Of a stretch of 55,002 bases of DNA, positions 18,724-53,463 are shown piece after piece; positions within the stretch are counted from its first letter, which is position 1; each line of letters starts with the position of its first letter. The stretch spans positions 1-55,002 of the forward strand of contig CAJHIS010000003.1 of NCBI GenBank assembly GCA_905067555.1. Direction: 5' to 3'. The DNA is from Candidatus Argoarchaeum ethanivorans (GTDB taxonomy: Archaea; Halobacteriota; Methanosarcinia; Methanosarcinales; EX4572-44). The position numbers were made by a program, and so were the translations under genes. The notes beneath the pieces were generated by a model, which saw nothing but the letters and a program-made list of their open reading frames with translations, ran no database searches and had not been told where the DNA came from.

Positions 18724-18850
18724 AATATCTATATACTCCATGTAATCTGGAAACATGTATTTGAATTTAACTTATATAATTGTTACTGATAATCAAATGT
18801 TGCTGAAAACTTTAAAGAAGGTGCTTCAGTTGTCGAGTGACCTCAATTTG

Positions 18851-18946
18851 AGTGACCTCAACATTTGTAAAGGGCAAAAAATCTCTGTATCTGCACAACG
18901 AAGTTGTGCAGGTCGTCAAGTGACCTCAATATTTATAAAGGGTAAA
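18851..18946 (+). promoter_or_regulatory. Duplicated 28-nt promoter-like element flanking an inverted A-type hairpin
   Basis: agtgacctcaacatttgtaaagggcaaa (18851-18878) and agtgacctcaatatttataaagggtaaa (18919-18946), 25/28 identical. The second copy carries a TATA-like tttataaa about 35-50 nt upstream of the SD and GTG start. A third agtgacctcaa copy is at 18836-18846. Hairpin ctgcacaac-gaa-gttgtgcag at 18891-18911. Confidence 0.45.
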
Positions 18947-18982
18947 TGGAAGTTAGATCTACCCGGAGAGGTGACAACGGTT

Positions 18983-29392: not shown

Positions 29393-30328
29393 TTACTTTT
29401 TACTCACGTACCACTTATATGCCTGCTTAATTCCATTCCTGAGCGATACCTTTGCTTCCCACCCAAGCTCCCGCAGCCTGCTAACATCCAGCAACTTCTG
29501 TGGCGTCCCATCAGGCTTGGAGGCATCATACACGATTTTCCCACCATATCCTACAATCTCCCCGATCAGCTCAGCCAGCTCCCGAATCGTAACATCCTCC
29601 CCGAGCCCGATATTAACAAATTCCCCGATATCCGAGGCATCATAGTTCTCCATCAAATACACGCATGCATCCGCCATATCATCCACATACAAAAACTCCC
29701 GCCTGGGTGTCCCGGTGCCCCACACAACGACTTGCGGTGAACTATTCGGCTTTGCTTCATGGAACTTGCGTATGAGCGCAGCCATGACATGAGATGTCTC
29801 AGGGTCGTAGTTGTCACCCGGGCCATAGAGGTTGGTTGGCATAACCGAGATGAAGTTCGTCCCGTACTGCTGGTTGTAATGCTTGCACATCCGTATCCCT
29901 GCGATCTTTGCAACCGCATACGCCTCGTTGGTGACCTCAAGTTCACCTGTGAGCAGGTATTCTTCCTTCAGAGGCTGCAGCGCAAGTCTGGGATATATGC
30001 ATGATGAACCAAGGAAGAGTAGTTTTTTCACGCCATAGGTGTATGCAGCATGGATGACGTTGGCTTCTATCATGAGGTTTTCGTAGATGAACTCTGCCGG
30101 ATAAGTGCTGTTTGCCAAAATGCCGCCGACCTTTGCTGCGGCTAAGAAGACGTATTCCGGTCTTTCCGCTTTGAAGAAATGGTTTACAGCCTGCTGGTTG
30201 GTGAGGTCAAGCTCGCTGTGTGTGCGGGTTACGAGGTTATGGTAACCTCTGGCTTCGAGGTTACGGCGGATGGCTGAGCCTGCCATGCCGCGGTGGCCCA
30301 GGATGTAGATTTTGGATTGTGGGTTCAT
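29393..30328 (-). CDS. fcl: GDP-L-fucose synthase (GDP-4-keto-6-deoxy-D-mannose 3,5-epimerase/4-reductase)
   Basis: 311 aa. [53 protein letters not shown]. Full-length family pattern. Confidence 0.88.
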
Positions 30329-34600: not shown

Positions 34601-35680
34601 TCATGTAGGGTTATGGTAGTTTGCCGAATTTCTACATCGGTATTTATGATAATATCTACAAATATACAACTCTACCCCGAGATAAGTCGAAGATAAGAGC
34701 ATCAAACCAAAAACCAATACCGCCAGTAATTTAGGCTTTTTAAAGTGGCTCATTGCAACCCAAAATACCTTCTTAGAAAATGATTCTTTAAGCAACTTTT
34801 TTGCATTTTGCGATTGCCCTCTTAATATATAATTCACTGCACGTTGTATATTGTCATCAGATCGTTGAAATTCATAATTATTCAAGCTGCTGGTTAGGGT
34901 CTTTATATTAGTACGCGTTTCAGCTAATAAATGAAAGTCAATCACCTTAAAAAAATCAGCCTCATCGATGCGTAGATAGTTATATATTGTTCCACCTTGC
35001 ATATTACTGATCCGATACCTCATCAATTTTTCATCTAAAATGGTAATTGGATGCTTTTTTAGGATTCTTAACCACATGTCCAGATCAGAAGATGTACCAA
35101 ACCTTTCGACATCAAATGTGGATAACTGCTTATATATCTTACTCCGGACCATAGCACTTGGACACAGCAGGAAATTTCCGTTTTTTAATATTGAAGTAAG
35201 TATATCTTGAAATGGATATATTTGTTTGCCTTTTAACTCTAAAGGTAATTTATGCTCTCCAATTATTTCACCATGAATATCGATGTGGTCAGCCATAGTA
35301 AAGACCGCACCGACAGACGAATTATCCTGAAAAGCCTGCACTTGCTTTTCTACCATATCAGGATTATACAAATCATCAGCATGAAATATAGCAATATAGT
35401 CACCCGTAGCCAACTCAATGCAACGGCTGAAATTCTGTTCTGCAATTATAGTTTTACTGGTTCTATAAATCTTTATTCGTGGATCATTAAATTTGTCTAA
35501 AAGGCTTAAAGTATTATCTGTGGAAGCATTCTCAGAGATGACGATCTCCAAATTTTTATATGTTTGATCTATTATCGAATTTAAGGTCTCTGCTATGGTT
35601 TTTTCAACATTGTATGTTGGAATGCAAATGCTTACTAATGGTTGCTTATTATTTGAATTAATCATTCTTGAGAATTTCAC
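34601..35680 (-). CDS. Glycosyltransferase family 2 with a C-terminal TM segment
   Basis: VSICIPTYNVEKTIAETLNSIIDQTY, VISENASTDNT, FHADD. Confidence 0.85.
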   Translation of the reverse strand: MKFSRMINSNNKQPLVSICIPTYNVEKTIAETLNSIIDQTYKNLEIVISENASTDNTLSLLDKFNDPRIKIYRTSKTIIAEQNFSRCIELATGDYIAIFHADDLYNPDMVEKQVQAFQDNSSVGAVFTMADHIDIHGEIIGEHKLPLELKGKQIYPFQDILTSILKNGNFLLCPSAMVRSKIYKQLSTFDVERFGTSSDLDMWLRILKKHPITILDEKLMRYRISNMQGGTIYNYLRIDEADFFKVIDFHLLAETRTNIKTLTSSLNNYEFQRSDDNIQRAVNYILRGQSQNAKKLLKESFSKKVFWVAMSHFKKPKLLAVLVFGLMLLSSTYLGVELYICRYYHKYRCRNSANYHNPT

Positions 35681-36644
35681 TGATTATGGTATCTGCAAAA
35701 CATTCTGCACTGAATGGATATATTTCAGGGCTTTCAATAAAATTCTTTATCGCAGCTAAATAACCCAAGTATTCTTCATCAGGCATATTTTTTATATAAT
35801 CATAAAGCTCCTCATAACTATTAAATTTTCTTCGATCTATGAATGTATCTTCAGGTATGAAATCGGTCACATTTGGTGCCCCCCAGTAAATTGGGACACA
35901 GCCCGCGAAGAAACAATTAAAAATCTTTTCTGTAATATAACTAGGAATATCCCTTGCATTTTCATAACAAATCGCGAATTTGTATTTTGGGAGTACTGTC
36001 CTTGAGGGGGCAGGACCTTTAAATGAGGAATATTTAGGTATTAGAAGTTTTGTCATCGATTGAAATCTGTTTAAACTTGTCAAAGCACCTTTAAAACAAT
36101 GTCTGTCCCAACCAATACCATACAAATCAAAATCTTTCGGATGATTTTGCTCAAACCAGCGAATTGCTTTTATCCTTTCTGTATATAATTCTAATGAATG
36201 GGATTCGAATTTATGTGATGCCACCATAGTGCAGAGTTTTTCTTTTTTGCTCATGTCATAATCCAAGTCCGTAGGTATTTTATGAGCATAATTTATCTTT
36301 AAATAGTTTCTACCATCCACCAAATTATTATCCCACGTAAAAATTTTCTTGAAGTATTTATGTTTTTTCGTATTCCAATTGTCGGATTTTATAATCTTAG
36401 ATTCGAGCATTAGCAGATAGCTATCCTTATCAGGCATAATATCTCTAATTTTAGGCATTTCATTGTAAATTATAAATTGAGCTTCTGAAGGTGGATTAAT
36501 ATCCTGTGTACTTAAATCAATTCCCTTTTCCCTAAATTTTTCTTTAAGCACATAAAATCCATATAAGGAATCATTCATACTAACTTTATCAAAAACCCTG
36601 TTGTTTAAATAAAAAGAATCGGTAAAAAGAGTTGCTTTTATCAT
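35658..36644 (-). CDS. GT10-family alpha-1,3/4-fucosyltransferase-like protein
   Basis: [34 protein letters not shown] matches the GT10 signature (CFEN...Y.TEK...IPIYWG of bacterial FucT). Confidence 0.7.
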
Positions 36645-37690
36645 ATATGTTCCCCCATTTCAGTAAGTATTGACTTTATATCGTATTTATATTGCCAATT
36701 TGGATAATGAGACCTAAATTTATTAACATTGCTTATCCACCAAATATGATCACCAATTCTATTCTTTTCTGAATAGGAATAATCCATCTTCTTCCCCGTG
36801 ACCTCTTCACACATTTTAATTGCTTCTATAATTGAACAATTTGAATGCCTACCACCACCAATATTATATACCTCTCCAACTCTTGGATTTTGATAAAAAT
36901 GCCAGAAAGCATTTACCAAATCGTAACTGTGTATATTATCTCTTACCTGTTTTCCTTTGTAACCGTATATTGTATATTGCTTCCCAGTAATAACACATTT
37001 CATAAGATAAGATAAAAAACCATGTAATTCAGTACCAGAATGAAAGGGTCCCGTCAAACATCCGGCTCTAAAACATACAGTCTTCATGCCAAAATATTTA
37101 CCATATTCTTGCACTAAAATATCCGCAGCAACTTTTGAAACTCCGAAAAGACTATGTTTCGTCTGGTCAATACTCATTGATTCATCAATGCCATATTTAA
37201 AATATTTATGAGATTCATCTATTTCCCATCTTGTTTCTAATTCTACAAGAGGCAAGTTGTTTGGAGTATCTCCATATACTTTATTCGTTGATGTAAAAAT
37301 AAAAACTGCTTCATTGCAATATTTTCTTGTCATTTCCAATAAAATCAACGTGCCGTTTGCATTTACTGTAAAATCAGTAAAGGGATCTCTTGCTGCCCAA
37401 TCGTGTGATGGTTGGGCGGCAGTATGTATAACAAGTTTTATGTCTGTCCCATATTCTTTAAAAATATTTTCCATTATTCCTGTATCTCTAATATCCTCGC
37501 TGTAATGAACATAGTTTTTAATCTCTCTTTGAAGATTTTTTCTGCTCCAATCGGTAGAAGCATCTTCTCCAAAGAATTCTTTTCGCATATTATTATCAAT
37601 ACCAACAATCTTGAATCCTCTATTTGCAAAAAAACGAGTCGATTCTGCTCCAATCAGTCCGGCTGAGCCGGTAATTAAAACTACTTTCAT
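36641..37690 (-). CDS. NAD-dependent sugar-nucleotide epimerase, extended SDR (CDP-paratose 2-epimerase-like)
   Basis: [14 protein letters not shown]ossmann motif, [16 protein letters not shown] (YxxxK equivalent region). Its length and layout resemble RfbE-type epimerases. Substrate is inferred from context only. Confidence 0.7.
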
Positions 37691-37720: not shown

Positions 37721-38080
37721 TTAACCCTTCACAAAGTCATCATTCCATGTGAAAATCTTTTTGAAATGCTTATGCAATTCTATTTTCCAATTAATTGGAT
37801 GTACTATTGTTGACTCTGAGATAACCAAATAACTTTCATGGTCATCATTAAAATACTTTTCAACATTCTTAGGGATATCAAAAAATAATAATCCATACGC
37901 TTTTTTGTTATTTTCATTAAAATAATCATACGTATTTAAAGATACACCCAACTCATTAAATTTTTTCTTTAATAAGTAATAAGGATAATAATAATCATCA
38001 CGGTTCGTGGGGCTATCAATATTAAATATTTTATTTTTATAATAATAATCACTTATACAAACAAGGAATAATTTTTCCAT
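37721..38080 (-). pseudogene. Truncated N-terminal paralog of the GT10-like fucosyltransferase
   Basis: The 119 aa align to residues 1-~120 of the 35658-36644 product (LLKKKFNELGVSL / [30 protein letters not shown] / [17 protein letters not shown]), then stop. The catalytic C-terminal two thirds are absent. Confidence 0.55.
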
Positions 38081-38092
38081 TAAATTTCCACC

Positions 38093-39548
38093 TTAATTTT
38101 TATATAATTTATGTATAATGGCATGAATGTTTGGAAAGTTTAATTTTAATGATGCACCAAATATAACAGTTACAAATTCTTTATTTTGTAGTATATATTT
38201 TGTGATGACCATCGGCATTTTTAAAAAATGATTTTTGAAACCTCTTAAAGTTAAAATTCTATCTATCGCCACCCCATACATAATTTTATTTTCAAATTCA
38301 ATTAACTTTTTAGAGTTATGCTCAACTGTATAATATGGTACTGATTTATCAGATAGCCAAAAATCATCATCAATTTGACCTGCATTTTTCATTTGATCAT
38401 AGACTTCTGTTCCTGGGTACACCCATAGTTTTCCAACCCCTGCGATCCAACTATAATGAATTTTTTGGGTTGTTTGAACCAAATCGATGGTTTCAGATAT
38501 TGTTTTATCATTTTCACCTGGAAAACCGCACATTAAAAAAGTTGTGATTGTAAAATTAAATGGTTTCAAAGTTTTAAATAAATTGATTACATCATTTTTA
38601 TTAATATTTTTATGTATTGATTTTAATAATTTCTGTGAGCCAGTTTCCAGCCCAAACATTATCTTTGTGAAGCCAGCACGTTCCATCCAGTAAAACATCT
38701 CTGATGAAATAGGTTTTACTCTTGCACTGCATTCAAAAGTAAGTTTTAAATTTGCATCAACCACCATTTTACAAAATTGTATTACTCGTGAATTATATAG
38801 CAAAAACGCATCGTCATGTATTTGAATATGTTTTAGACGTGGATATTTTTGTTTCAAAGATTTGATTTCATTTACCACATTGGTAATATCACGTTTTCTG
38901 TATTGTCGTTTAGAGATTGCCTTTAGACAACAAAAACTACAATCATACGGGCAGCCTCTTGATGTAATAATGTGTCCAATTGTGCGATTGGATTCATTAT
39001 CGAAAAAGACTTCATGTTTTGGAAATGGTATGGAATCCAAATCATAAATTAATTCTCTGGGTTTAGTTTGAACAACTTGTCCATTTTTATAAAACGCTAT
39101 GCCATCAACAGTTTCCAATGTAGCTTTGGATTCAAATGCTTTTATTAATTCACTTACAGCATATTCACCCTCTCCTATCACTGCAATGACATGAGGGTAT
39201 TTTTTAATTATCTGTTCATACATTACTGATGTGTGTATCCCCCCCAACAATTATGCGAGTGTGTGGGGAACAAATTTTCAACTTTTCAATGGCATTGAAA
39301 GTGGAAACTCTATTCATGCTAAAAATCTGAAATCCAATAATTTCCGGTTTAAACATCTCAAAACATTCAAATAACTTCTTTTCAGAAAAATCTTCATCAT
39401 AGTTGTTTAAGAAAAGTAATTTAACTTCATGTCCTTCTTTTTCAAGAACTGAGTATATATATGCTAATCCAATTGGATATGCAGTGTTTGGGTTGTGTTC
39501 AAACCGACTGGCTGGCTCAATCGATAATGTTGCAAGTAAAATCTTCAT
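38093..39548 (-). pseudogene. B12-binding radical SAM gene split by a +1 frameshift in a G7 tract
   Basis: N-terminal ORF 39216-39548 (B12-binding-type domain, ...RIIVGGDTHISNV*) and C-terminal ORF 38093-39250 (..GGIHTSVMYEQ..., CPYDCSFC). Removing one G from the run at 39239-39245 gives a continuous ...RIIVGGIHTSVMYEQ.... Confidence 0.75.
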
Positions 39549-40546
39549 GAGGATTCCTCATCAATTCTGGAGAAAAACTTTCTTAATCTCTTGACATAGG
39601 TATGCTCTTCAATTGCTCTCTTATATCCATTAATCATAATCTCTTTTCTTTCCGACTCATTTTCAAGAAAATATTCAATTTGTGAGAGTAAATCCTCAAA
39701 TGAAGTATATATTGACACTTCATTCCCAATCTCAAAGTAATCCTCTAAAGACAGAGCATAATTTGTTAACTGAAATCCGCCAAAAGCTGGGATCTCAAAA
39801 TTCCTTGCTTTTATTTGTTCAACTTTTTTATCAGATTTAATAAATTCATTCAGGTTCTTAATAGATGAAAAGACGCAACGGATATCATAAGAAGCGCTAT
39901 TGGATATATTAAGGTTTATTTTCGATGTATTAAAAATTTGCGTCATCTCTTCAAATGAAACTCTCCCATTTTTCCAGCCGTGTCCAAAACATTCAACCTT
40001 TATTCCCCTTTCCAGCAGCTTCCCAATGATCCACTTCCGGTAACCGCTGATACTGCCTATAAATGAAATGTCATATTTGTATTCTATAGTGTCAAAATCT
40101 ATATTTTCACGATATCCAAAAGATGCCCATTGGCTAAGAATGACATTCTTATAACCTATTTTATTATATTTAATCAATGAAAACTTATCAGTTGTAATTG
40201 AATAAGTAAAATGGGGTGCATAATATTTAGTAAAATTTTCAAATCTCCACGGATCATCACAAAACCAATTGATCGTGATATATTTACTTTTCAAATAATC
40301 TAACGTTTCAAAAGTAAACTCATCCCTCATCAATATAAAAAAAACAATGTCTGGTTTGATCTCATCGATAAATTCGACAATTCGTCTCTGTAATTCATCT
40401 TTTTTTGATAAATACTCGTCAAACCAAAATGGGATTACATCTTTTGTTATTTGCTTTAGAGCTGGATAAAATCCCCTCACATCTAACGATTCTCCACGAG
40501 ATTGTATTCCATAATCATACCTGAGAAATACTGGAACGATTTTCAT
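39545..40546 (-). CDS. CgeB-family glycosyltransferase-like protein
   Basis: 333 aa. KARNFEIPAFGGFQLTNY and the C-terminal YFLENESERKEI resemble CgeB/DUF3880-type proteins. Family assignment is from memory. Confidence 0.5.
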   Translation of the reverse strand: MKIVPVFLRYDYGIQSRGESLDVRGFYPALKQITKDVIPFWFDEYLSKKDELQRRIVEFIDEIKPDIVFFILMRDEFTFETLDYLKSKYITINWFCDDPWRFENFTKYYAPHFTYSITTDKFSLIKYNKIGYKNVILSQWASFGYRENIDFDTIEYKYDISFIGSISGYRKWIIGKLLERGIKVECFGHGWKNGRVSFEEMTQIFNTSKINLNISNSASYDIRCVFSSIKNLNEFIKSDKKVEQIKARNFEIPAFGGFQLTNYALSLEDYFEIGNEVSIYTSFEDLLSQIEYFLENESERKEIMINGYKRAIEEHTYVKRLRKFFSRIDEESS

Positions 40547-40549
40547 TTC

Positions 40550-41890
40550 TTACCACTTTTCATGAAGATTCTCAATATAATTCTCAAATGCTTTTAATAT
40601 ATATTTCATTTTTTCAGAATCAATCCCAGGATAAACTCCAATCCAGAAACTATTTTTCATTATATTATCTGTATTCTCTAAATCTCCAACAACCCTATAT
40701 TTTCCAAAATCGCCTCTTATCTCATCAAAACAGGGATGTTTTATTATATTTCCTGCAAAAAGCATCCTTGTCTGAATACCTTTTGATTCTAAATAGCCTA
40801 CAATATCATTCTTGGAAAAACCGCTTTCTTCTCGTACAGTAATTAAGAATCCGAACCAGCTAGGGTCGCTCCCATAAGTAGCTTCAGGCAATATAAAATG
40901 ATCTTCATATTTCTTTAACCCGTTGAACAATTCTTTGAAATTTTTTCTCCTTTTATCAATAAAACCAGGCAACTTTTCAAGCTGCGCGCATCCAACAGCC
41001 GCTTGCATGTCTGTAACTTTTAGATTATACCCAAAATGAGAATATGTATATTTATGATCATATCCTTTTGGTAGTTGACCAAGCTGCCACGAAAACCGTT
41101 TACTGCAGGAATTATCCTGCCCTGAATCGCACCAGCAATCCCTTCCCCAATCTCTAAATGAATGAATTATGTCTTTCAAAAGAGTGTTATCTGTTGTTAA
41201 AGCCCCCCCCTCCCCCATGGTCATATGGTGTGGAGGATAAAAGCTATATGTTGCTATATCTCCGAATGTGCCAGTGTATTTACCATTATATTCTGAACCA
41301 AGGGAATCACAGTTATCTTCAATAAGCCAGAGCCCATTCTTACTGCAAAAATTCTTTACTGAACCTATGTCAAAAGGATTACCCAGCGTATGTGCAAGGA
41401 AAACTGCTCTGGTTTTTTCACTGATCGCATTTTCAAGTTGAGAGCATTCGATATTATATGTTGGTATATTCACATCAACAAAAACAGGAACCAGATTATT
41501 TTGTATTATAGGTGCTACTGTAGTTGGGAAGCAGGCGGCAGTCGTAACCACTTCATCGCCTGGTTTTAATTGCCTATCTCCAAGTTTGGAAGAAGTTAAT
41601 GCTGTAATGGCAAGCAGGTTCGCAGATGAGCCCGAGTTCGTAAGAATACAATGTTTTACGCCCAGGAACTCTGAGAAGTTTTTTTCGAACTCTTTCGCAT
41701 ATCTGCCTGCCGTAAGCCAGAATTCAAGTGCAGAATCTACAAGATTGATTAATTCCTTCTCATCGTATACTCTACTGGCATAATTTACTTTTGATTTACC
41801 TGGTATGAATTGCTCTTGCTGATGAGCTAATGAATAATAGTCCTTGACCTTGCTGAAAATTTCCTTCTTGAGTTCTTCTTTGGTTTTCAT
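40550..41890 (-). CDS. rfbH: CDP-4-dehydro-6-deoxyglucose 3-dehydrase (E1), PMP- and 2Fe-2S-dependent
   Basis: 446 aa, near-collinear with enterobacterial RfbH/DdhC as I recall it (LTNSGSSANLLAITALTS, GFPTTV-like CFPTTVAP, DHKYTYSHFGYNLKVTDMQAA). His replaces the Schiff-base Lys (PPHHMTMGEGG). The C-X57-C-X1-C-X7-C motif is intact, counted in the translation. Confidence 0.9.
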   Translation of the reverse strand: MKTKEELKKEIFSKVKDYYSLAHQQEQFIPGKSKVNYASRVYDEKELINLVDSALEFWLTAGRYAKEFEKNFSEFLGVKHCILTNSGSSANLLAITALTSSKLGDRQLKPGDEVVTTAACFPTTVAPIIQNNLVPVFVDVNIPTYNIECSQLENAISEKTRAVFLAHTLGNPFDIGSVKNFCSKNGLWLIEDNCDSLGSEYNGKYTGTFGDIATYSFYPPHHMTMGEGGALTTDNTLLKDIIHSFRDWGRDCWCDSGQDNSCSKRFSWQLGQLPKGYDHKYTYSHFGYNLKVTDMQAAVGCAQLEKLPGFIDKRRKNFKELFNGLKKYEDHFILPEATYGSDPSWFGFLITVREESGFSKNDIVGYLESKGIQTRMLFAGNIIKHPCFDEIRGDFGKYRVVGDLENTDNIMKNSFWIGVYPGIDSEKMKYILKAFENYIENLHEKW

Positions 41891-41901
41891 AGTAGTATTA
41901 A

Positions 41902-42852
41902 TTATTTATATAGATGTAAATTATTCTCAAACCATGAAATAGTTTGTCTGATTCCATCATCTATGTGACATTTCGGTCGCCAATTAAAACTTCGATTTAC
42001 TTTTTCAATGTCAGCTTCCCATTTTTCTGTATCATATGCTCTTCCGGAAAATGAGTTCCACTTTATTTCGCTCTGTGAGTCTGTAATTTCAATAATTCTA
42101 TTAACAATATACGTAACTGTTATTTGAGAACCGCTGCCAACATTGAACACCTCTCCTTTTAATCCGGAGGCTATCTCCATGCTTTGTAAATAAACATCCA
42201 ATACATCTTCAATATAAATATAATCTCTTACAGCAGCAGGATCTCCCAGTAGTAATGGTTTATTCTGTAGCGCATTTGTTATCGCGTAAGTTATTAACCT
42301 GCTCTTATCATCAAAGGGCCCAAATGGAGAAAAAAGCCTTAATCCGATTATTGGTTTGTCCTTAGTCTGAGCAATTGATTGCCCATACAATGTTGCTGCA
42401 CATTTTGAGATACCATAAAAATTAATAGGTTCGCATATATCTGTTTCTTTCATAGGTTCTTTTTTTGGTCCATATTCGGAAGAACTTCCGGTATTAACAA
42501 AACATTTATAATCAATATCATTACAGGCATTGATCAAATTAACCGCTCCAAGAAGATTTGTTTCAATAACTTCCCTATCAGGACGCTGAACTCCACCATA
42601 CATACTAGAAGTCGCTAAATGAAAAATCACATCTGGTTCAATTTCGGTCATCAAACCTTTCAATTCTTTCTGGTTGAGTAAATCTATAGTATGGTTATGT
42701 AAATCTAAAAAACAATCCATTAGCCTCCATTTATTAGATGACCTGCGAGTTAGTATATGAATGTCGTGTCCATTGGAGCTAAGTCTTCTAACCAGATTAG
42801 AACCCACAAAACCTGTTGCACCTGTCACTAATATTCTATATGTTTTTGTCAT
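41902..42852 (-). CDS. Extended SDR NAD(P)-dependent sugar-nucleotide reductase/epimerase (YerF- or paratose/abequose-synthase-like by context)
   Basis: ILVTGATGFVGSNL, GSSSEYG, YGISKCAA (YxxxK). Confidence 0.8.
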   Translation of the reverse strand: MTKTYRILVTGATGFVGSNLVRRLSSNGHDIHILTRRSSNKWRLMDCFLDLHNHTIDLLNQKELKGLMTEIEPDVIFHLATSSMYGGVQRPDREVIETNLLGAVNLINACNDIDYKCFVNTGSSSEYGPKKEPMKETDICEPINFYGISKCAATLYGQSIAQTKDKPIIGLRLFSPFGPFDDKSRLITYAITNALQNKPLLLGDPAAVRDYIYIEDVLDVYLQSMEIASGLKGEVFNVGSGSQITVTYIVNRIIEITDSQSEIKWNSFSGRAYDTEKWEADIEKVNRSFNWRPKCHIDDGIRQTISWFENNLHLYK

Positions 42853-42861
42853 AAGGTTATT

Positions 42862-44646
42862 TCAATTATCTGCAATATTCATTCGATCCAAAATTAATCT
42901 CATCGATTTCAATTCTTTTTCACTCAGAAATGGTGATTGCTCTTCTATTGGCCTGTTGAACTCCAGTTTTGGATTCACATTTATTTCCATTGGTATAATC
43001 ACTTCTATAAAACTTGGGGACTGATATTTCAATAATGTTGGAATTATTTTATTCAATCCTTTAACAGTATTTACACTTTCTGCCCTGATACCATAAGCAC
43101 TTACAACTTCAACAAAATCCGGGCAATCGTATCCAATCACGGTAGATAAGAAGTGTTTATTGAAATAGAGTTCTTGGAATTGCCTCACCATCCCCAGACT
43201 TTTATTGTTGATCAGAAAAATGTTTATTGGCAATTTACTCCTGACTATAGTCTGAAGTTCTTGGATATTCATCTGAAATCCCCCATCTCCAACAATTACA
43301 ACAACTTGTTTACCTGGTTCTGCTAAAGATGCACCTATGGCCGCTGGTAATCCAAAACCCATTGAGCCCATACCTCCGGAAATGATCATTCTTTGATCTT
43401 TTTTTATCTCAAAAGATTGAGCAGCCCACATTTGATGCTGTCCAACATCCAGACAAATAATTGCGTCATTATCAACCAATTGTGATAACCGGTTCATAAA
43501 AAAGTTAGGATTGATCGAGCTATCTTCATTTTTAGGGATTGTGTATGAAGGGTATTTATTCTTACATAGATTTATCCACTTATACCAAGCATTTAAAGAT
43601 TTACTTTTATCATGCTTAATACTTTTATTGATTATAGACAAAAATACCTTTACGTCTGATTTGATAGTTAAAAACGATTTGACTTTACAATTTAATTCAG
43701 TTTCATCGATATCAATATGTATGATCTTTGCCGACCTAGCAAAAGTGTCTGGTCTTGTCCCAGTTTGCCTGTTATCAAGCCTTGAACCAAGAATTATCAA
43801 TAGATCACTGTTTGCCACAGCAAGATTACTGTAACGGTTCCCGTAAGCACCAATCATTCCAAAAAAAAGTGGATTATCATGAGGATATGCATCCAATCCC
43901 ATGAGAGATACAACAACAGGTATTTTTGTTTTTTGAACGAACTCAAATAATTCATTGGATGCGCTTGCGCTTCGTATTCCCCCCCCGACCAAAACAATGG
44001 GTCTTTCTGATTGTCCGATCAAGTCAATTATGGTTTGGATTTTAAATTGATCTCCTTCATTCTTGATTTTTTCTTTGAAATTGTGGTATTCTTCACTATG
44101 ATAGAAATCCGGTAATTCCTCCGGATTTATCTGAGCTCTCTGGATATTCATTGGAATATCAAGTAAAACAGGGCCTGGTCGACCTGATTTTGCTATAAAA
44201 ACTGCTTTTTGAAGTTGATATTTTATGGATTCAGGTTCAGTAATCATCATTGCATATTTTGTGATGGGTTTAACGATGCTGACAATATCAGTTTCCTGGA
44301 ATCCTATCTGTCTTATTTGCTTATCAAATTTATATTCATACGTATTTACTTGTCCAGTAATATACAAACATGGAATTGAATCAAAAAACGCACTACCAAT
44401 TCCTGTAATTAGATTAGTCGCCCCTGGGCCACTTGTAGCCATGGAAACTCCTATATTCAAAGTTACACGTGAATAAGATTCCGCTGCAAAAGCCGCTGCT
44501 TGTTCATGGTGGGTAGTAATACAGATGATATCTTTTCGATCATGGGTCGAATCGACTAAATGAGTTATTGCTCCACCAATAACTTCAAAAATATGACGTA
44601 CATCATTTTCAGCAAGAAAATCAATTACATAATCCGATAATTTCAT
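42862..44646 (-). CDS. Thiamine-diphosphate-dependent enzyme, acetolactate-synthase large-subunit-like (YerE-like by context)
   Basis: 594 aa. N-terminal Pyr domain (HEQAAAFAAESYSR, SGPGATNL), central domain, C-terminal TPP motif GSMGFGLPAAIGA...VGDGGFQMNIQEL. Confidence 0.85.
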   Translation of the reverse strand: MKLSDYVIDFLAENDVRHIFEVIGGAITHLVDSTHDRKDIICITTHHEQAAAFAAESYSRVTLNIGVSMATSGPGATNLITGIGSAFFDSIPCLYITGQVNTYEYKFDKQIRQIGFQETDIVSIVKPITKYAMMITEPESIKYQLQKAVFIAKSGRPGPVLLDIPMNIQRAQINPEELPDFYHSEEYHNFKEKIKNEGDQFKIQTIIDLIGQSERPIVLVGGGIRSASASNELFEFVQKTKIPVVVSLMGLDAYPHDNPLFFGMIGAYGNRYSNLAVANSDLLIILGSRLDNRQTGTRPDTFARSAKIIHIDIDETELNCKVKSFLTIKSDVKVFLSIINKSIKHDKSKSLNAWYKWINLCKNKYPSYTIPKNEDSSINPNFFMNRLSQLVDNDAIICLDVGQHQMWAAQSFEIKKDQRMIISGGMGSMGFGLPAAIGASLAEPGKQVVVIVGDGGFQMNIQELQTIVRSKLPINIFLINNKSLGMVRQFQELYFNKHFLSTVIGYDCPDFVEVVSAYGIRAESVNTVKGLNKIIPTLLKYQSPSFIEVIIPMEINVNPKLEFNRPIEEQSPFLSEKELKSMRLILDRMNIADN

Positions 44647-44658
44647 AATCTCACACTT

Positions 44659-45663
44659 TTAAGATTTAAAATTACTTTTGTACCATTCAATCGTTTCAAC
44701 CAACGAAGAATCCAACGTATATTTTGGACTCCAGTCAAGTTGTTCTTTAGCCTTTTTTGCTGATAAATATTGATTTCGTATCTCATTCTTAGCCTGGTTC
44801 AGGATCGTTGGTTCAAGGTCAGCATCCATTATATTAATTATCTTTTTTACAAGTTCTAAGACAGTTACCTGAATCTCAGTACTGAAATTGTATGCCCCCC
44901 CATGAGTACTTGTATCTGAAAGCATTTTTTCTGCAAGGAGCATGTATGCAAGCGCACCGTCCTTTACGTAGAAATAGTCGCGAATGAATGTCCCATCGCT
45001 GCGTATGACAGGACTTTCTCCATTTAGCAAGGAACGGATCGTACCGGGGATAATCCTGTTGAAATTTAGATCTCCTGGCCCGTAAAAATTCCCACACCGT
45101 GTAACGCAAACAGGCAACTTAAAGGTATTGTAGTAGGTGTATGCAATAAGATCGGCACAACTTTTGGAAACATCATACGGATGGGTACCTTGCAATGGCG
45201 TACTCTCGTCATACGGCAAATGCTTTTGACCCCCATATGCTTTATCACTGGAAGCAATCACCATAGCTTTGATAAGTGGGGATCTTCGGCATGCCTCAAG
45301 GAGATAGTATGTTCCACGTATGTTGGATTCGAACGTGGATAAAGGATTGCGGTTCGCTATTCCTACAATCGTTTGCGCTCCCAGATGGAACACCACTTCA
45401 GTTTCATACTCGTTCAATGCCCGTTCTAAAAGTTCATAATCTTCGAGCTTACCATAGACTACCGTTAAAGTATCTTTGATATAATCAAACTCATCGGAGC
45501 TACTCCACAATATAGATTTAGGAACGATATCACGGACCAATATAATAACATTGGCACCTTCATCAACCAATAACTTGGTCAGCCAAGAACCCACCAGTCC
45601 TGTTGCACCGGTAATGAATATATTCTTATCTTTCCAGTTATACTTCATCATCTTCCCATACAA
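44659..45663 (-). CDS. rfbG: CDP-glucose 4,6-dehydratase
   Basis: [34 protein letters not shown]. Immediately downstream of, and overlapping, rfbF. Confidence 0.85.
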
Positions 45664-46423
45664 CCCATGGCCTATTATTTAAATTCCATTGTTCATTGAC
45701 CGCTTCAACCTCTTTATAGGTATCTATGGCTTTCCAAAACCCACGATGCTCGTATACAGCAAGTTCCTTCTCTTTAGCCACCTTGGGCAAAGCATCACGC
45801 TCAAAGTTGGAATTTTCTAGTAGATAACTGAATATCTCACTATTTAATACGTAGAATCCGCCATTTATCAAACCATCAGTGGATGGTTTTTCTGCGAATG
45901 AGGTTGCAATTCCAGATTCTTCGACTTCGAGAACACCGAAACGAAATTGTGGTCTTGTTCCTGTTACAGTGGCAATTTTATTCTTTGAATGGTGGTATGA
46001 CAAAAGATTGGATATATTAACGTCTGCCAGACCATCACCGTATGTTAAGAAGAAAACGTCATCATCAATGTATTTTTCTATTTTTTTAACGCGTCCACCA
46101 GTATCAGTATCTTCACCTGTATCTGCAAAAGTGATATTCCAATTTTCCATGGCATGCGCATGAGTTGTCACTTCGCCTTTCCCTTTACCCATATGCAATG
46201 TAAAGTCGTTGGCAAACCATTCAAAGTTCATAAAATAGTCTTTGATCATGTTTCCTTTATAGCCAAGACACAATACAAAATCATTGAATCCATAATAGCT
46301 ATAGGTCTTCATTATATGCCAGAGTATCGGCATTCCACCAATTTCAACTAATGGTTTTGGCTTGTACTCTGTTTCCTCGCGCATACGTGTACCTTTTCCA
46401 CCACACAGGATCGCAACTTTCAT
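45638..46423 (-). CDS. rfbF: Glucose-1-phosphate cytidylyltransferase
   Basis: [39 protein letters not shown] and [13 protein letters not shown] are the characteristic RfbF pattern. 261 aa. Confidence 0.92.
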
Positions 46424-46570: not shown

Positions 46571-46758
46571 TCACATACCACCCATGCACTCCCCAACCCC
46601 TTCTCCCGACAACAGCTTAGCCTCCACCCCAGCCATCCCCAAAAACATCAAGCAGTTTTTGTGGCATGCCGTCCGGTTTTGATGCATCATACCTCATCCC
46701 CCCGAACCCGACAACATCCATAATCAATTCTGCCAGTGTGCCAACCATTTTGACAATG
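46571..46758 (-). pseudogene. C-terminal relic of a third GDP-fucose-synthase-family gene
   Basis: Minus-strand translation gives [31 protein letters not shown], then a frameshift, then ..VEAKLLSGEGVGE... It parallels [50 protein letters not shown] of the intact fcl. GC-rich, unlike both neighbours. Confidence 0.65.
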
Positions 46759-46764
46759 ATTATC

Positions 46765-47940
46765 TTATCTTTTCCTCAAACAACTACTCAAAGTTTCCAA
46801 GTCAGATTCTGAAAGCTCCGGATAATTTCCGCAGTAAAAACCACAGTTATGAATAAAATCTGTACCAGGTAAATCAAAAGTATTATGAACATATTTTTTG
46901 TAAAAAGGTTGGTTTTGAATATTTCCTGCAATCATTGGACGTATTTCTATTCCCGCCCCTGAAAACTGGAAGATGTATTTATCTCTCAATTTTGGAGTCC
47001 TGCATAAAATAGGGTATGCAAAACTTGAAAGACGTTTTAAATGTGTGTGATCCAATTGAATCAGATCAGGATTATCACGAAGGATTGCCTCTAACATCAT
47101 ATAATTATTTTCGCGTTTTGCGATGTTTTCCTCAATAAATTTAAGCTGATAAAGTCCAATGAAACCAGTTATTTCCGTGGGGCGCAAATTATATCCTAAA
47201 TCATAGAAAGTATACTTAGCATCAAACTCACTTTGAATATTAAAATTCTTACGCCATTTTAATTGCTGTACGGCCGTCAAATTTCTGTCCCACCCGTTTG
47301 CACGAACGATCCTAAGCATTTGTGCAAGCTCTGTATCGTCTGTGCATACCATACCCCCTTCAATTGTGGACATATGATGGGCAACGAAAAATGAAAAACT
47401 TGATGCTATGCTAAAATTACCTGCCTTGCCAGTGTGCAGTGCAGTTCCCAATGACTCACAATTGTCTTCTATCAAAACAATTCCCCTCTCATCACAAATC
47501 TGTTTTATTCGGTCCAAATCACCTGTAAAACCAAGTGCATTTGTGATAAAAAGAGCTTGAAGGTCAGTAGAATTTAGTCTTTCATTTAGAATATGTGACA
47601 TCACATTAAGAGTTTTCGGGTCACAATCCACTGCAACAGGTTCCATACCCAACTGAATGATTGGCATGACATTTGTTGACCATGTGAGTGCGGAAAAACC
47701 AATCTTGTCGCCATTTTTCAATCGCCCTATATTTTTCAATGCCTGCAACATTGCCAAATTTGCGCTGCCCCCGCTATTGAACAAAACTGAATCATTTCTG
47801 CCTTGAAACGCTGCAAATTCTTTCTCGAATACATAACATTTATTATCCATGCTCAATCGAGGCGCTTTCATGATAAACTCAGCGAGTGCTTGTTTTGTCT
47901 CATATTCATTAAGGAAAGCATTTTTCATTAATGGTATCAT
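46765..47940 (-). CDS. colD: GDP-4-keto-6-deoxy-D-mannose 3-dehydratase-like (ColD-like) DegT-family enzyme
   Basis: 391 aa. DegT fold (NSGGSANLAML, LIEDNCESLG) with His at the Schiff-base Lys position (FFVAHHMSTIEGG) and no E1-type Cys cluster. 4-nt overlap with an fcl-family gene. Confidence 0.75.
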   Translation of the reverse strand: MIPLMKNAFLNEYETKQALAEFIMKAPRLSMDNKCYVFEKEFAAFQGRNDSVLFNSGGSANLAMLQALKNIGRLKNGDKIGFSALTWSTNVMPIIQLGMEPVAVDCDPKTLNVMSHILNERLNSTDLQALFITNALGFTGDLDRIKQICDERGIVLIEDNCESLGTALHTGKAGNFSIASSFSFFVAHHMSTIEGGMVCTDDTELAQMLRIVRANGWDRNLTAVQQLKWRKNFNIQSEFDAKYTFYDLGYNLRPTEITGFIGLYQLKFIEENIAKRENNYMMLEAILRDNPDLIQLDHTHLKRLSSFAYPILCRTPKLRDKYIFQFSGAGIEIRPMIAGNIQNQPFYKKYVHNTFDLPGTDFIHNCGFYCGNYPELSESDLETLSSCLRKR

Positions 47941-48893
47941 TGTTTAGCACCTTCAAGTTTCAAATTCCTATATTCTGTTATTACTTGATCTATACCATTC
48001 TCCAAAGTTATTGAAGGATAAAAGCCAAGCGATTGTAATTTAGAAACATCCAAGCACTTTTTTAACATCCCATCCGGCATATTCGTATCCCAAACTATTC
48101 TGCCAGTATACTCAACTTTATTTGCAATTAATTCAGCCAACTCTTTGATAGATATATCAGTTCCACACCCGACATTAATAATCTCTGGTGAATCCCATTC
48201 TTCAACCAAAAACAATACTGCCTGTGAAAGATCGTCGACATGCATAAATTCTCTTCTGGCAATTCCACTTCCCCAAAGTACTTCTTCTTTTTTGTTTTCA
48301 TCAGTTGCATCTACAAATTTTCTAACCAATGCTGAAAGAACGTGAGAATTGTCAGGATCAAAGCTGTCATTTGTTCCATATAGGTTGCATGGCATAGGAT
48401 TTATGCAATTTAGGCCATACTGCTTATGGTAATACTGTGCTAATCTCAAACCTGCAATCTTGGCAAGTGCATACCCCTCATTCGTTGGCTCAAGTGGTCC
48501 AGTCATGAGATATTCTTCTTTGATAGGTTGAGGGCAGTCTTTTGGATAAATACACGAGCTTCCCAGGAATGCCAATTTTTTTACACCGGATTTATTGGAC
48601 TGATAAATGACATTGTTTTGTATCATTAGATTATCATACAAAAAATCCCCGGGATATTGCATGTTCGCTTGTATTCCCCCAACCTTTGCAGCAGCTAAGA
48701 ACACATAATCTGGAGAGTGTTGATTAAAAAAAATCTCCACACTTTTTGCATCACGAAGATCTAGTTCTTGCCTGGTAGCAGTGATTATATTTGAATAACC
48801 TTTATTCTGCAAAGCTCTCATAATCGCTGAGCCAACCATGCCTTTATGGCCAGCTATGAAGATGCTATCTTTTTTATTCATTTCATACGCCAT
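47937..48893 (-). CDS. GDP-L-colitose synthase-like (ColC-like) member of the GDP-fucose synthase family
   Basis: 318 aa. [42 protein letters not shown]. Second full fcl-family copy, translationally coupled to the ColD-like gene. Confidence 0.7.
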   Translation of the reverse strand: MAYEMNKKDSIFIAGHKGMVGSAIMRALQNKGYSNIITATRQELDLRDAKSVEIFFNQHSPDYVFLAAAKVGGIQANMQYPGDFLYDNLMIQNNVIYQSNKSGVKKLAFLGSSCIYPKDCPQPIKEEYLMTGPLEPTNEGYALAKIAGLRLAQYYHKQYGLNCINPMPCNLYGTNDSFDPDNSHVLSALVRKFVDATDENKKEEVLWGSGIARREFMHVDDLSQAVLFLVEEWDSPEIINVGCGTDISIKELAELIANKVEYTGRIVWDTNMPDGMLKKCLDVSKLQSLGFYPSITLENGIDQVITEYRNLKLEGAKQ

Positions 48894-51998: not shown

Positions 51999-53027
51999 TT
52001 AAGCCGCATCCCCTTTTACCATCATCTTCACCAGTTCCCGGAGTCCAACCTTCGCCTCCCAACCCAGCTTCTCCTTAGCCTTCGTTGGGTCGCCTAACAA
52101 AAGCTCCACCTCGGTTGGCCTGTAATATCTTGGATCAATCTCGATCACAATATCACCAGTCGCCTGGTCAACCCCAACCTCATCCGTACCTTCTCCCTGC
52201 CACCCAATCTCGATCCCAACTTCCCTAAACGCAAGTTCCACAAACTCCCGCACAGAATGCGTCTTGCCAGTCGCAATCACGAAATCATCAGGCTCGTCCT
52301 GCTGGAGCATGAGCCACATCGCTTCAACATAATCTCCTGCAAAACCCCAGTCTCGCTTTGCGTCCATATTACCAAGATATAGTTTATCCAGCATGCCTTT
52401 CTTTATCTTCGCTGCTGCCATTGTGATCTTTCTTGTAACAAATGTCTCGCCGCGAATTGGTGACTCGTGGTTGAACAGGATGCCATTACATGCGAACATA
52501 TCATAAGCTTCGCGGTAATTTACGGTAACCCAGTAGGCGTATACCTTGGCTGCCGCATACGGGCTTCTCGGGTAGAACGGGGTAGTTTCCTTCTGTGGAA
52601 TCTCCCGGACCTTGCCGTAAAGTTCACTGGTTGAAGCCTGGTAGAACTTGGTTTTCTTTTCAAGGCCAAGTATACGTATAGCTTCCAAAAGCCGCAACGT
52701 CCCGACTGCATCTGCATTTGCAGTGTACTCGGGCGTATCGAAGGATACCTGAACATGACTCTGAGCTGCGAGGTTGTAAATTTCATCGGGTTGCGTTTCC
52801 TGGATGATCCGGATCAGGTTTGTCGAATCTGTCAGGTCACCATAGTGCAGGAAGAAATTCACGTTTCTCTCGTGTGGGTCTTTGTACAGATGGTCGATTC
52901 GCGCGGTGTTAAAGGAAGAAGATCTTCGCTTTATGCCGTGTACGATGTATCCTTTATTCAGGAGGAACTCTGCGAGGTATGCGCCGTCCTGTCCTGTGAT
53001 TCCGGTTATCAGGGCTGTTTTTGTCAT
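51999..53027 (-). CDS. gmd: GDP-mannose 4,6-dehydratase
   Basis: 342 aa. [60 protein letters not shown]. Full-length family pattern. Confidence 0.93.
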
Positions 53028-53108: not shown

Positions 53109-53315
53109 TTAATAGCTGCCACGAATCGGTTTTTCAAAATACCTTATAGTTTCCTTAAGCCCCACTTCTAACCCCACCACCGGCGCCCACCCAAGCACTT
53201 CCGCCGCCATAGCGATATCCAGAGCCTTCACACCAAACCCCTCAATCACATCATCACTGAGCAGAGGATCATACCCATACACACCCGCACCAAACTCCTT
53301 ACGCACCCTCACAAT
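53109..53315 (-). pseudogene. C-terminal relic of a UXS-like SDR gene (inside the 100-aa track ORF 53109-53411)
   Basis: ...DVIEGFGVKALDIAMAAEVLGWAPVVGLEVGLKETIRYFEK parallels ...[37 protein letters not shown] of the neighbouring UXS-like gene. Confidence 0.55.
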
Positions 53316-53463
53316 CTCCCTCTTATACAGGGACCGCCTTTTTGGGACGCTTTTAAGTTTTTGAACATCTTCTTCTGATAATAATTCCTGGATCCTTTCC
53401 ATTTGTTTCACCGCCTGTTGTGCGAGGAGATTCGTTCCGGATGAAACAAACCTTCATAAGGAG

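Follow-up and report, generated by a model that had tools for sequence, protein, structure and literature searches.

What is a thiamine pyrophosphate (TPP) enzyme doing among genes for a cytidine diphosphate (CDP)-activated 3,6-dideoxy sugar, in an archaeon, and on the same strand as the oligosaccharyltransferase gene aglB? The question is raised by a stretch of 55,002 nucleotides (nt) from Candidatus Argoarchaeum ethanivorans (contig CAJHIS010000003.1, positions 1 to 55,002; hereafter the window), in which a first-pass annotation made from the letters alone had pointed to a five-gene cassette at positions 40550-46423. The analysis described here suggests, on balance, that this cassette would direct the synthesis of a CDP-activated, C4-branched 3,6-dideoxyhexose of the yersiniose class, and that its TPP enzyme quite probably acts as a sugar-branching carboligase.

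The region 40550-46423 was found to consist of exactly five intact, tightly packed open reading frames (ORFs), all on the minus strand. The cassette's first gene, rfbF/ddhA (45638-46423, minus strand), encodes a glucose-1-phosphate cytidylyltransferase that scores 315 bits against TIGR02623 (cutoff 300) and is 44% identical to DdhA of Yersinia aleksiciae. It is followed on the same strand by a divergent, rfbG-like NDP-hexose 4,6-dehydratase (44659-45663) for which CDP-glucose is the presumed substrate, and by a 594-amino-acid (aa) protein (42862-44646) which, from its domains, clade and synteny, is predicted to be a YerE-like thiamine diphosphate (ThDP)-dependent carboligase for C4 acyl-branching of CDP-4-keto-3,6-dideoxyhexose. 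Next comes an extended short-chain dehydrogenase/reductase (SDR) of 316 aa (41902-42852), which synteny and a cofactor motif mark as a probably NADPH-dependent candidate for the reduction of the branch carbonyl, and the cassette ends with E1 (RfbH/DdhC; 40550-41890), a 446-aa DegT-family protein assigned through NF011936 and alignment to PDB entry 3BCX as a pyridoxamine phosphate (PMP)/[2Fe-2S] CDP-4-keto-6-deoxyglucose 3-dehydrase. The rfbF/rfbG overlap amounts to 26 nt from the listed TTG start, and to 14 or 11 nt from the in-frame ATGs at 45651 and 45648, while the remaining intergenic gaps are 12, 9 and 11 nt. Coordinates and spacing re-derived from the ORFs thus agree with the earlier description of five co-directional, closely spaced genes.

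The earlier description had missed that the tight spacing carries on beyond E1, through a Glyco_trans_1_2-type glycosyltransferase gene, a B12-binding radical SAM gene, a GT10 fragment, a TyvE-like SDR gene, a GT10 gene and a GT2 gene, and the cassette is therefore best viewed as the head of a longer transcription unit. A gap of 341 nt precedes rfbF, with a putative TATA-like AT-rich box about 20 nt before the rfbF ATG, and the transcription unit probably starts within this gap. Between about 54986 and 25139 all genes lie on the minus strand, and at its downstream end the array closes with AglB (25139-27796, minus strand; Pfam STT3, AglB_core and AglB_L1). The aglB gene lies 12.7 kb downstream of the cassette, on the same strand and in one unidirectional array, and the TIGR04154 score of its product (822 bits, cutoff 450) confirms the proposed setting in an archaeal N-glycosylation island.

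The TPP enzyme is considered first. All three Pfam domains (TPP_enzyme_N, M and C) match the protein and the GDGG ThDP-binding motif is kept. The top NCBIfam model is that of acetolactate synthase (ALS), TIGR00118, at 528 bits and under its cutoff of 538.35. The top PDB match is 5AHK (439 bits, 43% identity over the full length), plant acetohydroxyacid synthase (AHAS) scoring 377 bits and JanthE (PDB 8RPH) 301 bits, below the plant enzyme. A paralogous or housekeeping acetolactate/acetohydroxyacid synthase that has come to lie among sugar genes by chance could be envisaged from the TIGR00118 match, which is top-ranked and just 10 bits short of its cutoff, and from the name 'acetolactate synthase' under which close homologues are publicly annotated. 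The public names of these sequences are generic throughout, ranging over 'thiamine pyrophosphate-binding protein', 'acetolactate synthase' and 'GDP-L-fucose synthase'.

Neighbour-joining trees of 95 and 101 sequences, with 200 bootstraps, were used to place the protein; 73 ALS were included, and YpYerE, ErwE and JanthE were left out. The window enzyme, its homologues at 57-88% identity, more distant relatives, 5AHK and a Yersinia protein formed a clade apart from the 73 ALS in 200 of 200 bootstraps, and the TPP protein of locus L010 also fell inside this YerE-like clade. The two groups differ at several sites. An R-F-D-D-R-[VI]-T-G loop and a Q-W-Q tryptophan are found in ALS, and we take the RFDDR arginine loop and this tryptophan to be the 2-keto-acid acceptor site of AHAS; the YerE-like clade carries R-[LM]-D-x-R-Q-T-G (RLDNRQ in the window) and Q-F-Q in their place, Q/G-F-Q being shared with 5AHK. 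After TGQV, the ALS motif ends in Gly and the clade reads TGQVNTYEYK, of which TGQVN-x-x-E-x-K is shared with 5AHK, and the clade has HHEQ..F where ALS have RHEQ..H.

Gene neighbourhoods separate the two groups as well. In a scan of genome contigs with generic motifs (TGQVNTYE, ATSGPGA[LT]N), 73 of the 80 matches listed were ordinary ALS, and these served as a negative control set. In the sampled loci, rfbF, the 4,6-dehydratase and/or E1 were found in the flanks of the window gene and of 12 of the 14 relatives' clade loci, against none of the 73 ALS loci. The small-subunit gene ilvN was a neighbour in 56 of the 73 ALS loci and in no clade locus, 15 of these being counted with the window included. 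A tblastn search of a plasmid collection returned only annotated ilvB genes, at 37-39% identity to the TPP enzyme. The separate clade, the replacement of RFDDR and QWQ, the conserved ddh synteny, the missing ilvN and the distance of the plasmid ilvB genes (39% identity at most) all speak against a synthase placed there by chance, which we regard as highly improbable. The TPP enzyme clearly does not group with ordinary amino-acid enzymes, it clearly keeps its ddh-gene neighbours in relatives, and by these comparisons it is not an ordinary acetolactate synthase. The earlier proposal of a YerE-type enzyme is upheld by the phylogeny (200/200), the signature residues, the ddh synteny and the lack of ilvN, and a function in sugar branching, as predicted from the same features, seems to us quite probable.

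The link to YerE runs through 5AHK. This entry was deposited as 'acetolactate synthase II', and we tentatively take it to be PpYerE, the YerE homologue of Pseudomonas protegens that accepts ketones. Its sequence is 100% identical to one Pseudomonas protein, a named P. protegens protein matches it at 83%, homologues at 68% occur in five Yersinia species, and residue 499 of the tagged chain is the Val of a G-M-V motif, which is consistent with V479 numbering. Variants at V479 have been described for PpYerE (PMC12247030). The same review puts the number of YerE-like enzymes predicted by cluster similarity at over 200 and reports that the donor range varies widely among them (PMC12247030).

The loci containing these enzymes fall into more than one type. 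The Yersinia aleksiciae locus and the Pseudomonas locus that encodes the 5AHK-identical protein show the canonical yersiniose order, with genes for E3, DdhA, DdhB, DdhC, the TPP enzyme and a 310-aa SDR, YerF, one after the other. The same five genes as in the window recur alone in Paenibacillus (rfbH-rfbF-rfbG-SDR-TPP), in Anaerospora and in a metagenome-assembled genome (MAG) of Steroidobacteraceae (rfbF-rfbG-rfbH-SDR-TPP), and the cassette or its TPP-SDR-E1 core was found in further archaea, namely Methanococcoides, two uncultured archaea, Methanoperedens and a Micrarchaeia MAG. Compared with the relative at locus L093, the window TPP enzyme and SDR are each 88% identical, the 4,6-dehydratase 76%, E1 70% and RfbF 52%; with the TPP and SDR genes at 88%, and rfbF and E1 at 52% and 70%, the TPP-SDR pair travels as a unit within a mosaic cassette. 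The dN/dS values against L093 are 0.09 for the TPP gene and 0.15 for the SDR gene, and both genes are under purifying selection. In L093 and in the other close relative, L088, a metallo-beta-lactamase-fold (Lactamase_B_2) gene lies between the dehydratase and TPP genes; the window has no such insertion. A second, divergent TPP enzyme of the YerE clade, about 39-40% identical to that of the window, is encoded in an uncultured archaeon (L089, 2644-4452) and in Methanoperedens (L092, 8205-10004), and in the latter it lies directly beside an SDR of the window type (72%) and E1 (70%).

The SDR at 41902-42852 was a candidate YerF homologue and was rejected as such, since direct BLAST gave no similarity between the two; YerF from Yersinia and from Pseudomonas likewise found no match by BLAST anywhere in the window. 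A true YerF orthologue does occur in Methanococcoides (L001, 12016-12957; 39% to Yersinia YerF, 243 bits), in a locus whose TPP enzyme is 75% identical to that of the window, and on these comparisons the Methanococcoides YerF and the window SDR represent a non-orthologous reductase replacement. Two reductase types thus swap as partners of near-identical TPP enzymes, an argument for their having one function in common, perhaps with a different stereochemical outcome. It is at precisely this stereocentre that yersiniose A is distinguished from yersiniose B (PMC4753412).

Orthologues of the window SDR adjoin the TPP gene at 40-46% identity in Paenibacillus, Pelotomaculum, Steroidobacteraceae, Anaerospora and a Ryanbacteria MAG, and at 71-72% in two archaeal MAGs; in all sampled loci that carry the SDR, the two genes are adjacent. 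The family is characterised by a conserved GxxGxxG motif, by a T-R-x-[ST]-S segment that follows beta-2 and is free of acidic residues, and by an S/Y146/K150 triad. Because the T-R-x-[ST]-S motif has no acidic residue and the triad is intact, the SDR is read as a reductase that is probably NADPH-dependent, not as an NAD+-retaining epimerase, and we consider it a functional analogue of YerF and a candidate reductase of the branch carbonyl.

The same SDR could be assigned differently. In a pathway to an unbranched 3,6-dideoxyhexose (paratose, abequose or tyvelose), it would reduce C4, the SDR at 36641-37690 would epimerise C2, and the TPP enzyme would be unrelated or accessory. The paratose/tyvelose version of this idea had been raised in the first-pass annotation, and part of it stands: 36641-37690 does have CDP-tyvelose 2-epimerases as its top PDB matches. 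The NADPH-type motif of the SDR at 41902-42852 would equally suit a 4-ketoreductase, and the lack of homology to YerF is also as expected for such an enzyme. What the proposal does not account for is that the SDR adjoins the TPP gene in all sampled SDR-carrying loci and co-diverges with it, and it is this evolutionary tie between SDR and TPP gene that disfavours paratose and tyvelose. In addition, complete bacterial five-gene cassettes do without a TyvE-like gene, this gene is missing from the relatives' loci, and TyvE-like enzymes can use CDP-glucose itself (PMC13098431). An unbranched product is thus considered unlikely, and a branched-chain sugar is the reading pursued below.

A branched 3,6-dideoxyhexose would depend on a working E1. 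The window protein scores 741 bits against NF011936 RfbH (cutoff 423) and gives a gap-free alignment of 555 bits with the E1 of Yersinia pseudotuberculosis (PDB 3BCX). In this alignment PPHHMTMGEGG spans residues 219-229, with H221 opposite the catalytic H220 of 3BCX, and C194-X57-C252-X1-C254-X7-C262 falls on C193, C251, C253 and C261. The two features noted before, His in place of the Schiff-base Lys and the C-X57-C-X1-C-X7-C motif, both therefore find their counterparts in 3BCX, and as far as alignment can tell the protein is a bona fide Fe-S/His E1.

The electron donor of this E1 is less readily named. No E3/DdhD-type reductase (Fer2, FAD_binding_6 and NAD_binding_1) was found in the 55-kb window by Pfam scans of its sizeable ORFs, by tblastn with Yersinia DdhD, or by a motif scan that was crude in itself but is backed by the other two, and the earlier statement that the window has no E3 holds on all three counts. 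E3 was likewise not found in any sampled relative locus outside the Yersinia and Pseudomonas pair, those of the archaeal, Firmicute and candidate-phyla branch included, and its absence is, as far as sampled, a trait of that branch and not a peculiarity of the window. Low-potential ferredoxins are abundant in methanogens. A precedent is offered by SpnQ, an E1-type Fe-S 3-dehydrase with no cognate E3 that runs on general ferredoxin or flavodoxin reductase pairs (PMC8987622), and by analogy SpnQ could serve as a model for how the window E1 works without a dedicated E3.

The absence of E3 from the window and from all sampled non-proteobacterial relatives could also be taken to mean that E1 stalls and that another sugar is made, either a C4-branched 6-deoxyhexose formed from the dehydratase product or a 4-amino sugar formed by transamination. 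In keeping with the second of these, SpnQ acts as an aminotransferase if it is given no reductase (PMC8987622); according to the same review, E1 and ColD did not display this activity (PMC8987622). In the window E1 a catalytic His stands where transaminases have Lys, and the four Fe-S cysteines are retained; it is because the His and the Fe-S ligands are conserved that a stalled or transaminating E1 is judged to be unlikely. E1 is also conserved in E3-less cassettes of many phyla and methanogens are rich in ferredoxin, so that we rate this outcome as quite improbable and retain the removal of the 3-hydroxyl group as the expected reaction.

The dehydratase that would supply E1 is divergent in relation to known enzymes of its type. 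Its top NCBIfam model is TIGR02622, at 216 bits against a cutoff of 278; identity to DdhB of Yersinia is 27%, against 87% to its Methanococcoides orthologue, and its PDB matches are near equal for dTDP-type (154 bits) and CDP-type (152 bits) enzymes. At the active site it carries the S-D-K found in the CDP-type structures 1WVG and 1RKX, and not the dTDP-type T-D-E. The best model and the S-D-K motif fit the name 'rfbG' given to the gene before, and the sub-cutoff score and the distance from DdhB make it a less typical enzyme than that name implies.

Taken together, the five enzymes can be arranged into a pathway that borrows its chemistry from yersiniose biosynthesis, in which the YerE and YerF reactions are documented (PMC12247030, PMC9306805). 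RfbF would convert glucose-1-phosphate to CDP-glucose, which the divergent 4,6-dehydratase would convert to CDP-4-keto-6-deoxyglucose. E1, with PMP, its [2Fe-2S] cluster and the catalytic His, would then remove the 3-hydroxyl group to give CDP-4-keto-3,6-dideoxyglucose, drawing two electrons from a general donor such as ferredoxin. The YerE-like ThDP enzyme would decarboxylate a 2-keto acid and transfer the acyl anion onto the C4 ketone; as the window has no aldolase genes that could supply another donor, pyruvate would be the simplest choice. The adjacent SDR would reduce the side-chain carbonyl with NADPH to leave a hydroxyalkyl branch, and neighbouring glycosyltransferases encoded in the same unit would transfer the sugar to a lipid-linked glycan, which would be flipped and then serve as the substrate of AglB. 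The sequences themselves establish which genes are present, the motifs of E1, the position of the TPP enzyme in the trees and among its neighbours, the lack of E3 and YerF in the window, and purifying selection on the TPP and SDR genes; all of the chemistry, including the 2-keto acid used, the function given to the SDR and the reductant of E1, is inferred by analogy, as is the glycoconjugate at the end of the pathway.

Within the same chemistry, a longer or functionalised 2-keto acid might be used, as it is by ErwE and MMAR_2332, to give an erwiniose- or caryophyllose-type sugar that is possibly C-methylated, which would be a variant of the pathway above and not exclusive of it. The wide differences in donor range among YerE-like enzymes (PMC12247030) would allow for this, as would the distance of the window clade from pyruvate-using YerE (43%), which is as great as that from other members, and the B12-radical SAM gene that the window and L089 both have conserved after E1. 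No aldolase or acetaldehyde-dehydrogenase genes for an erwiniose donor are present in the window, however, and its B12-radical SAM gene is frameshifted, and we consider this variant rather unlikely.

Several points weigh against a branched 3,6-dideoxyhexose as the product. The identification of 5AHK as PpYerE has only the indirect support of its Pseudomonas origin and the V479 numbering, and the window TPP enzyme is only 43% identical to 5AHK and to its Yersinia homologue, compared with 36-41% to ALS. The YerE-like homologues MygE, RhopE and SpirE did not accept ketones in vitro (PMC12247030), and the E3-less, non-YerF branch to which the window belongs has no biochemically characterised member. 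The 4,6-dehydratase remains under its equivalog cutoff, the role of the SDR was assigned solely by elimination and synteny, and the search for E3 was confined to the 55-kb window. Frameshifted and truncated genes nearby, described below, indicate an island that is partly decaying. The earlier claim that the 'same gene logic' as for yersiniose applies also finds no support in that form, as the window has no YerF homologue, its SDR is unrelated, and its dehydratase is 27% identical to DdhB. With these points set against the analogy to yersiniose biosynthesis, we nevertheless incline, by a modest degree, towards a cassette whose product is a C4-branched 3,6-dideoxyhexose, CDP-activated and of the yersiniose class, the branch and stereochemistry being left unspecified, and do not favour yersiniose itself as the product.

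Transferases for such a sugar can be proposed from the genes that follow the cassette. A candidate lies 3 nt downstream of E1, where a Glyco_trans_1_2-type glycosyltransferase is encoded (39545-40546, minus strand; PF13524), and a 70% orthologue of this gene adjoins the cassette in Methanococcoides. A GT10-family glycosyltransferase, of the 'fucosyltransferase' type (35658-36644, minus strand; PF00852), recurs beside the cassette in Methanococcoides (L001, 17522-18553; 63%) and in the Steroidobacteraceae MAG (L090, 12605-13636; 44%), and no GDP-fucose pathway gene was found in the 17.7-kb locus of the latter; the GT10 protein is likewise a candidate transferase for the CDP-sugar. Between these two genes, a minus-strand ORF of 119 aa (37721-38080) resembles by eye the N-terminal part of the GT10 protein (e.g. 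HKHFKKIFTWNDDFV) and is probably a truncated GT10 paralogue.

The B12-binding radical SAM protein of the methyltransferase class (38093-39548, minus strand) is represented by Pfam B12-binding and Radical_SAM matches on two overlapping ORFs. Its gene is frameshifted in a run of seven C at 39239-39245, and one C fewer would restore an ORF of 484 aa; an intact homologue of 492 aa is encoded downstream of E1 in the archaeal locus L089. The frameshift could be a sequencing error, the mark of a pseudogene or a phase-variable switch. The CDP-tyvelose 2-epimerase-like SDR mentioned above (36641-37690, minus strand), which has full-length PDB matches to 9RL0 (120 bits) and 1ORR (115 bits) and is absent from related loci, would be an accessory enzyme and could epimerise C2 of a CDP-sugar.

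Upstream of the cassette there is a further group of dideoxysugar-like genes, which the first-pass annotation had missed. A ColD-like dehydratase (46765-47940, minus strand) retains the His-His site, lacks the Fe-S cysteines and scores 195 bits against ColD of E. coli O55, and its gene overlaps by 4 nt that of an Fcl/ColC-like SDR (47937-48893, minus strand; 418 bits against an Fcl cutoff of 500). Gmd is encoded at 51999-53027 (minus strand; 629 bits) and a bona fide Fcl at 29393-30328 (minus strand; 506 bits). This arrangement has the look of another 3,6-dideoxy pathway directly upstream, independent of the first and of the GDP-colitose type, and a Wzx-like flippase is also encoded in the ColD/ColC-like group. 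The second DegT and SDR genes of Methanococcoides were considered as orthologues of the ColD-like and ColC-like genes and were set aside at only 28% and 36% identity.

The island bears the marks of rearrangement. Within the 341-nt gap, positions 46644-46745 (minus strand) hold a 35-codon relic of the C-terminal part of fcl, 69% identical to the window Fcl (E = 2e-12), which looks like a recombination scar at the point where the CDP cassette begins. The G+C content of the island (about 30-49 kb) is 34.9%, against 41.6% for the first 25 kb and 45-50% for aglB and gmd, and this low value fits a horizontally exchanged, variable glycan gene island. The gene scars, the mosaic divergence and the low G+C content together thus point to a recombining, strain-variable glycan island.

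A TumE-family toxin gene (PF20126; 53464-53847) and a small unannotated ORF (53109-53411), both on the minus strand, lie within the glycan gene array, between gmd and a truncated SDR gene at the edge of the window. Elsewhere in the window, genes of the FmdE, prefoldin and TYW2 types are present, and the nearest homologues are found in Methanococcoides, Methanolobus and Methanoperedens, a combination that would suggest a Methanosarcinales-type methanogen. On the plus strand, 18755-22954 encodes a fusion protein of 1399 aa that combines a HAD hydrolase, a trehalose-phosphatase and a full GH65 enzyme (N-terminal, catalytic and C-terminal parts), an unusual multi-domain enzyme of the trehalose/maltose type.

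YerE-like enzymes and ddh-linked clusters are already known in bacteria. The window cassette differs from the described systems in three ways, namely in having no E3, in its non-YerF reductase and in its archaeal AglB context. A literature search of incomplete coverage found no paper on the pathway or on any 3,6-dideoxy or branched sugar in archaea, and to that extent the earlier statement that such sugars are undescribed in archaeal glycans still applies. A survey of 303 archaeal genomes reported most rare monosaccharides to be absent from Archaea and placed 3,6-dideoxy sugars in the rare group, found mainly in Salmonella and Yersinia, yersiniose not being covered (PMC7725333).

As a wider and distinctly tentative proposal, which we consider possible but would not call probable, methanogenic and other archaea, many Firmicutes and candidate-phyla bacteria may share an E3-independent branched-sugar pathway, in which host ferredoxin would reduce E1, a new class of NADPH-dependent SDR would replace YerF, and a C4-branched 3,6-dideoxyhexose, possibly a new stereoisomer or C-methylated, would in the present case be installed by AglB on surface glycoproteins, beside a colitose-like sugar. 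Were this so, branched-chain and 3,6-dideoxy sugars would for the first time be known from the N-glycans of archaea, the archaeal glycan repertoire would be widened and gene exchange with bacteria would be indicated. The TPP enzymes would add a new and widespread branch to the ketone-accepting ThDP carboligases, a group in demand as catalysts for making chiral tertiary alcohols, enzymologists would gain a new partner reductase, and the cassettes would amount to a natural test of E1-type dehydrases operating without E3.

Set against known systems, the cassette shares parts with several of them. IlvB/IlvN AHAS has the three-domain ThDP/FAD-type fold and the GDG motif in common with the window TPP enzyme, at 36-41% identity, and differs from it in its separate clade, its RFDDR and QWQ motifs and its regulatory small subunit, the window enzyme being encoded in a sugar operon. 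SpnQ resembles the window E1 as a PMP/[2Fe-2S] 3-dehydrase with no dedicated E3 (PMC8987622), but it belongs to secondary metabolism and has a dTDP-2,6-dideoxy substrate, whereas the window E1 stands much nearer to the E1 of Yersinia, which is CDP-specific (555 bits). The GDP-colitose system (Gmd, ColD, ColC) is resembled by the genes upstream of the cassette, with modest similarity.

Other counterparts are the systems in which ThDP-dependent carboligation takes place on CDP-4-keto-3,6-dideoxyglucose and is followed by NAD(P)H reduction, as with ErwE/ErwF in erwiniose, MMAR_2332 in caryophyllose, and JanthE (PMC9306805). In these longer-branch clusters the donor acid is provided for by aldolase and dehydrogenase genes (PMC9306805), of which the window has none. 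5AHK belongs with the window TPP enzyme in the same clade (200/200), while the window enzyme lies in a separate sub-branch that is paired with a different reductase and that is 57-60% identical to many Firmicute and other bacterial proteins. The yersiniose A system of Y. pseudotuberculosis O:6 shares with the window the CDP-glucose entry enzyme, a 4,6-dehydratase, a true E1, a ThDP enzyme of the same clade and a following SDR. The yersiniose set has DdhD/E3 and YerF, and the window has neither; the gene order is D-A-B-C-yerE-yerF in the former and A-B-yerE-SDR-C in the latter; and the yersiniose genes belong to the O-antigen locus of a bacterium, whereas those of the window are found in an archaeon, in the neighbourhood of AglB.

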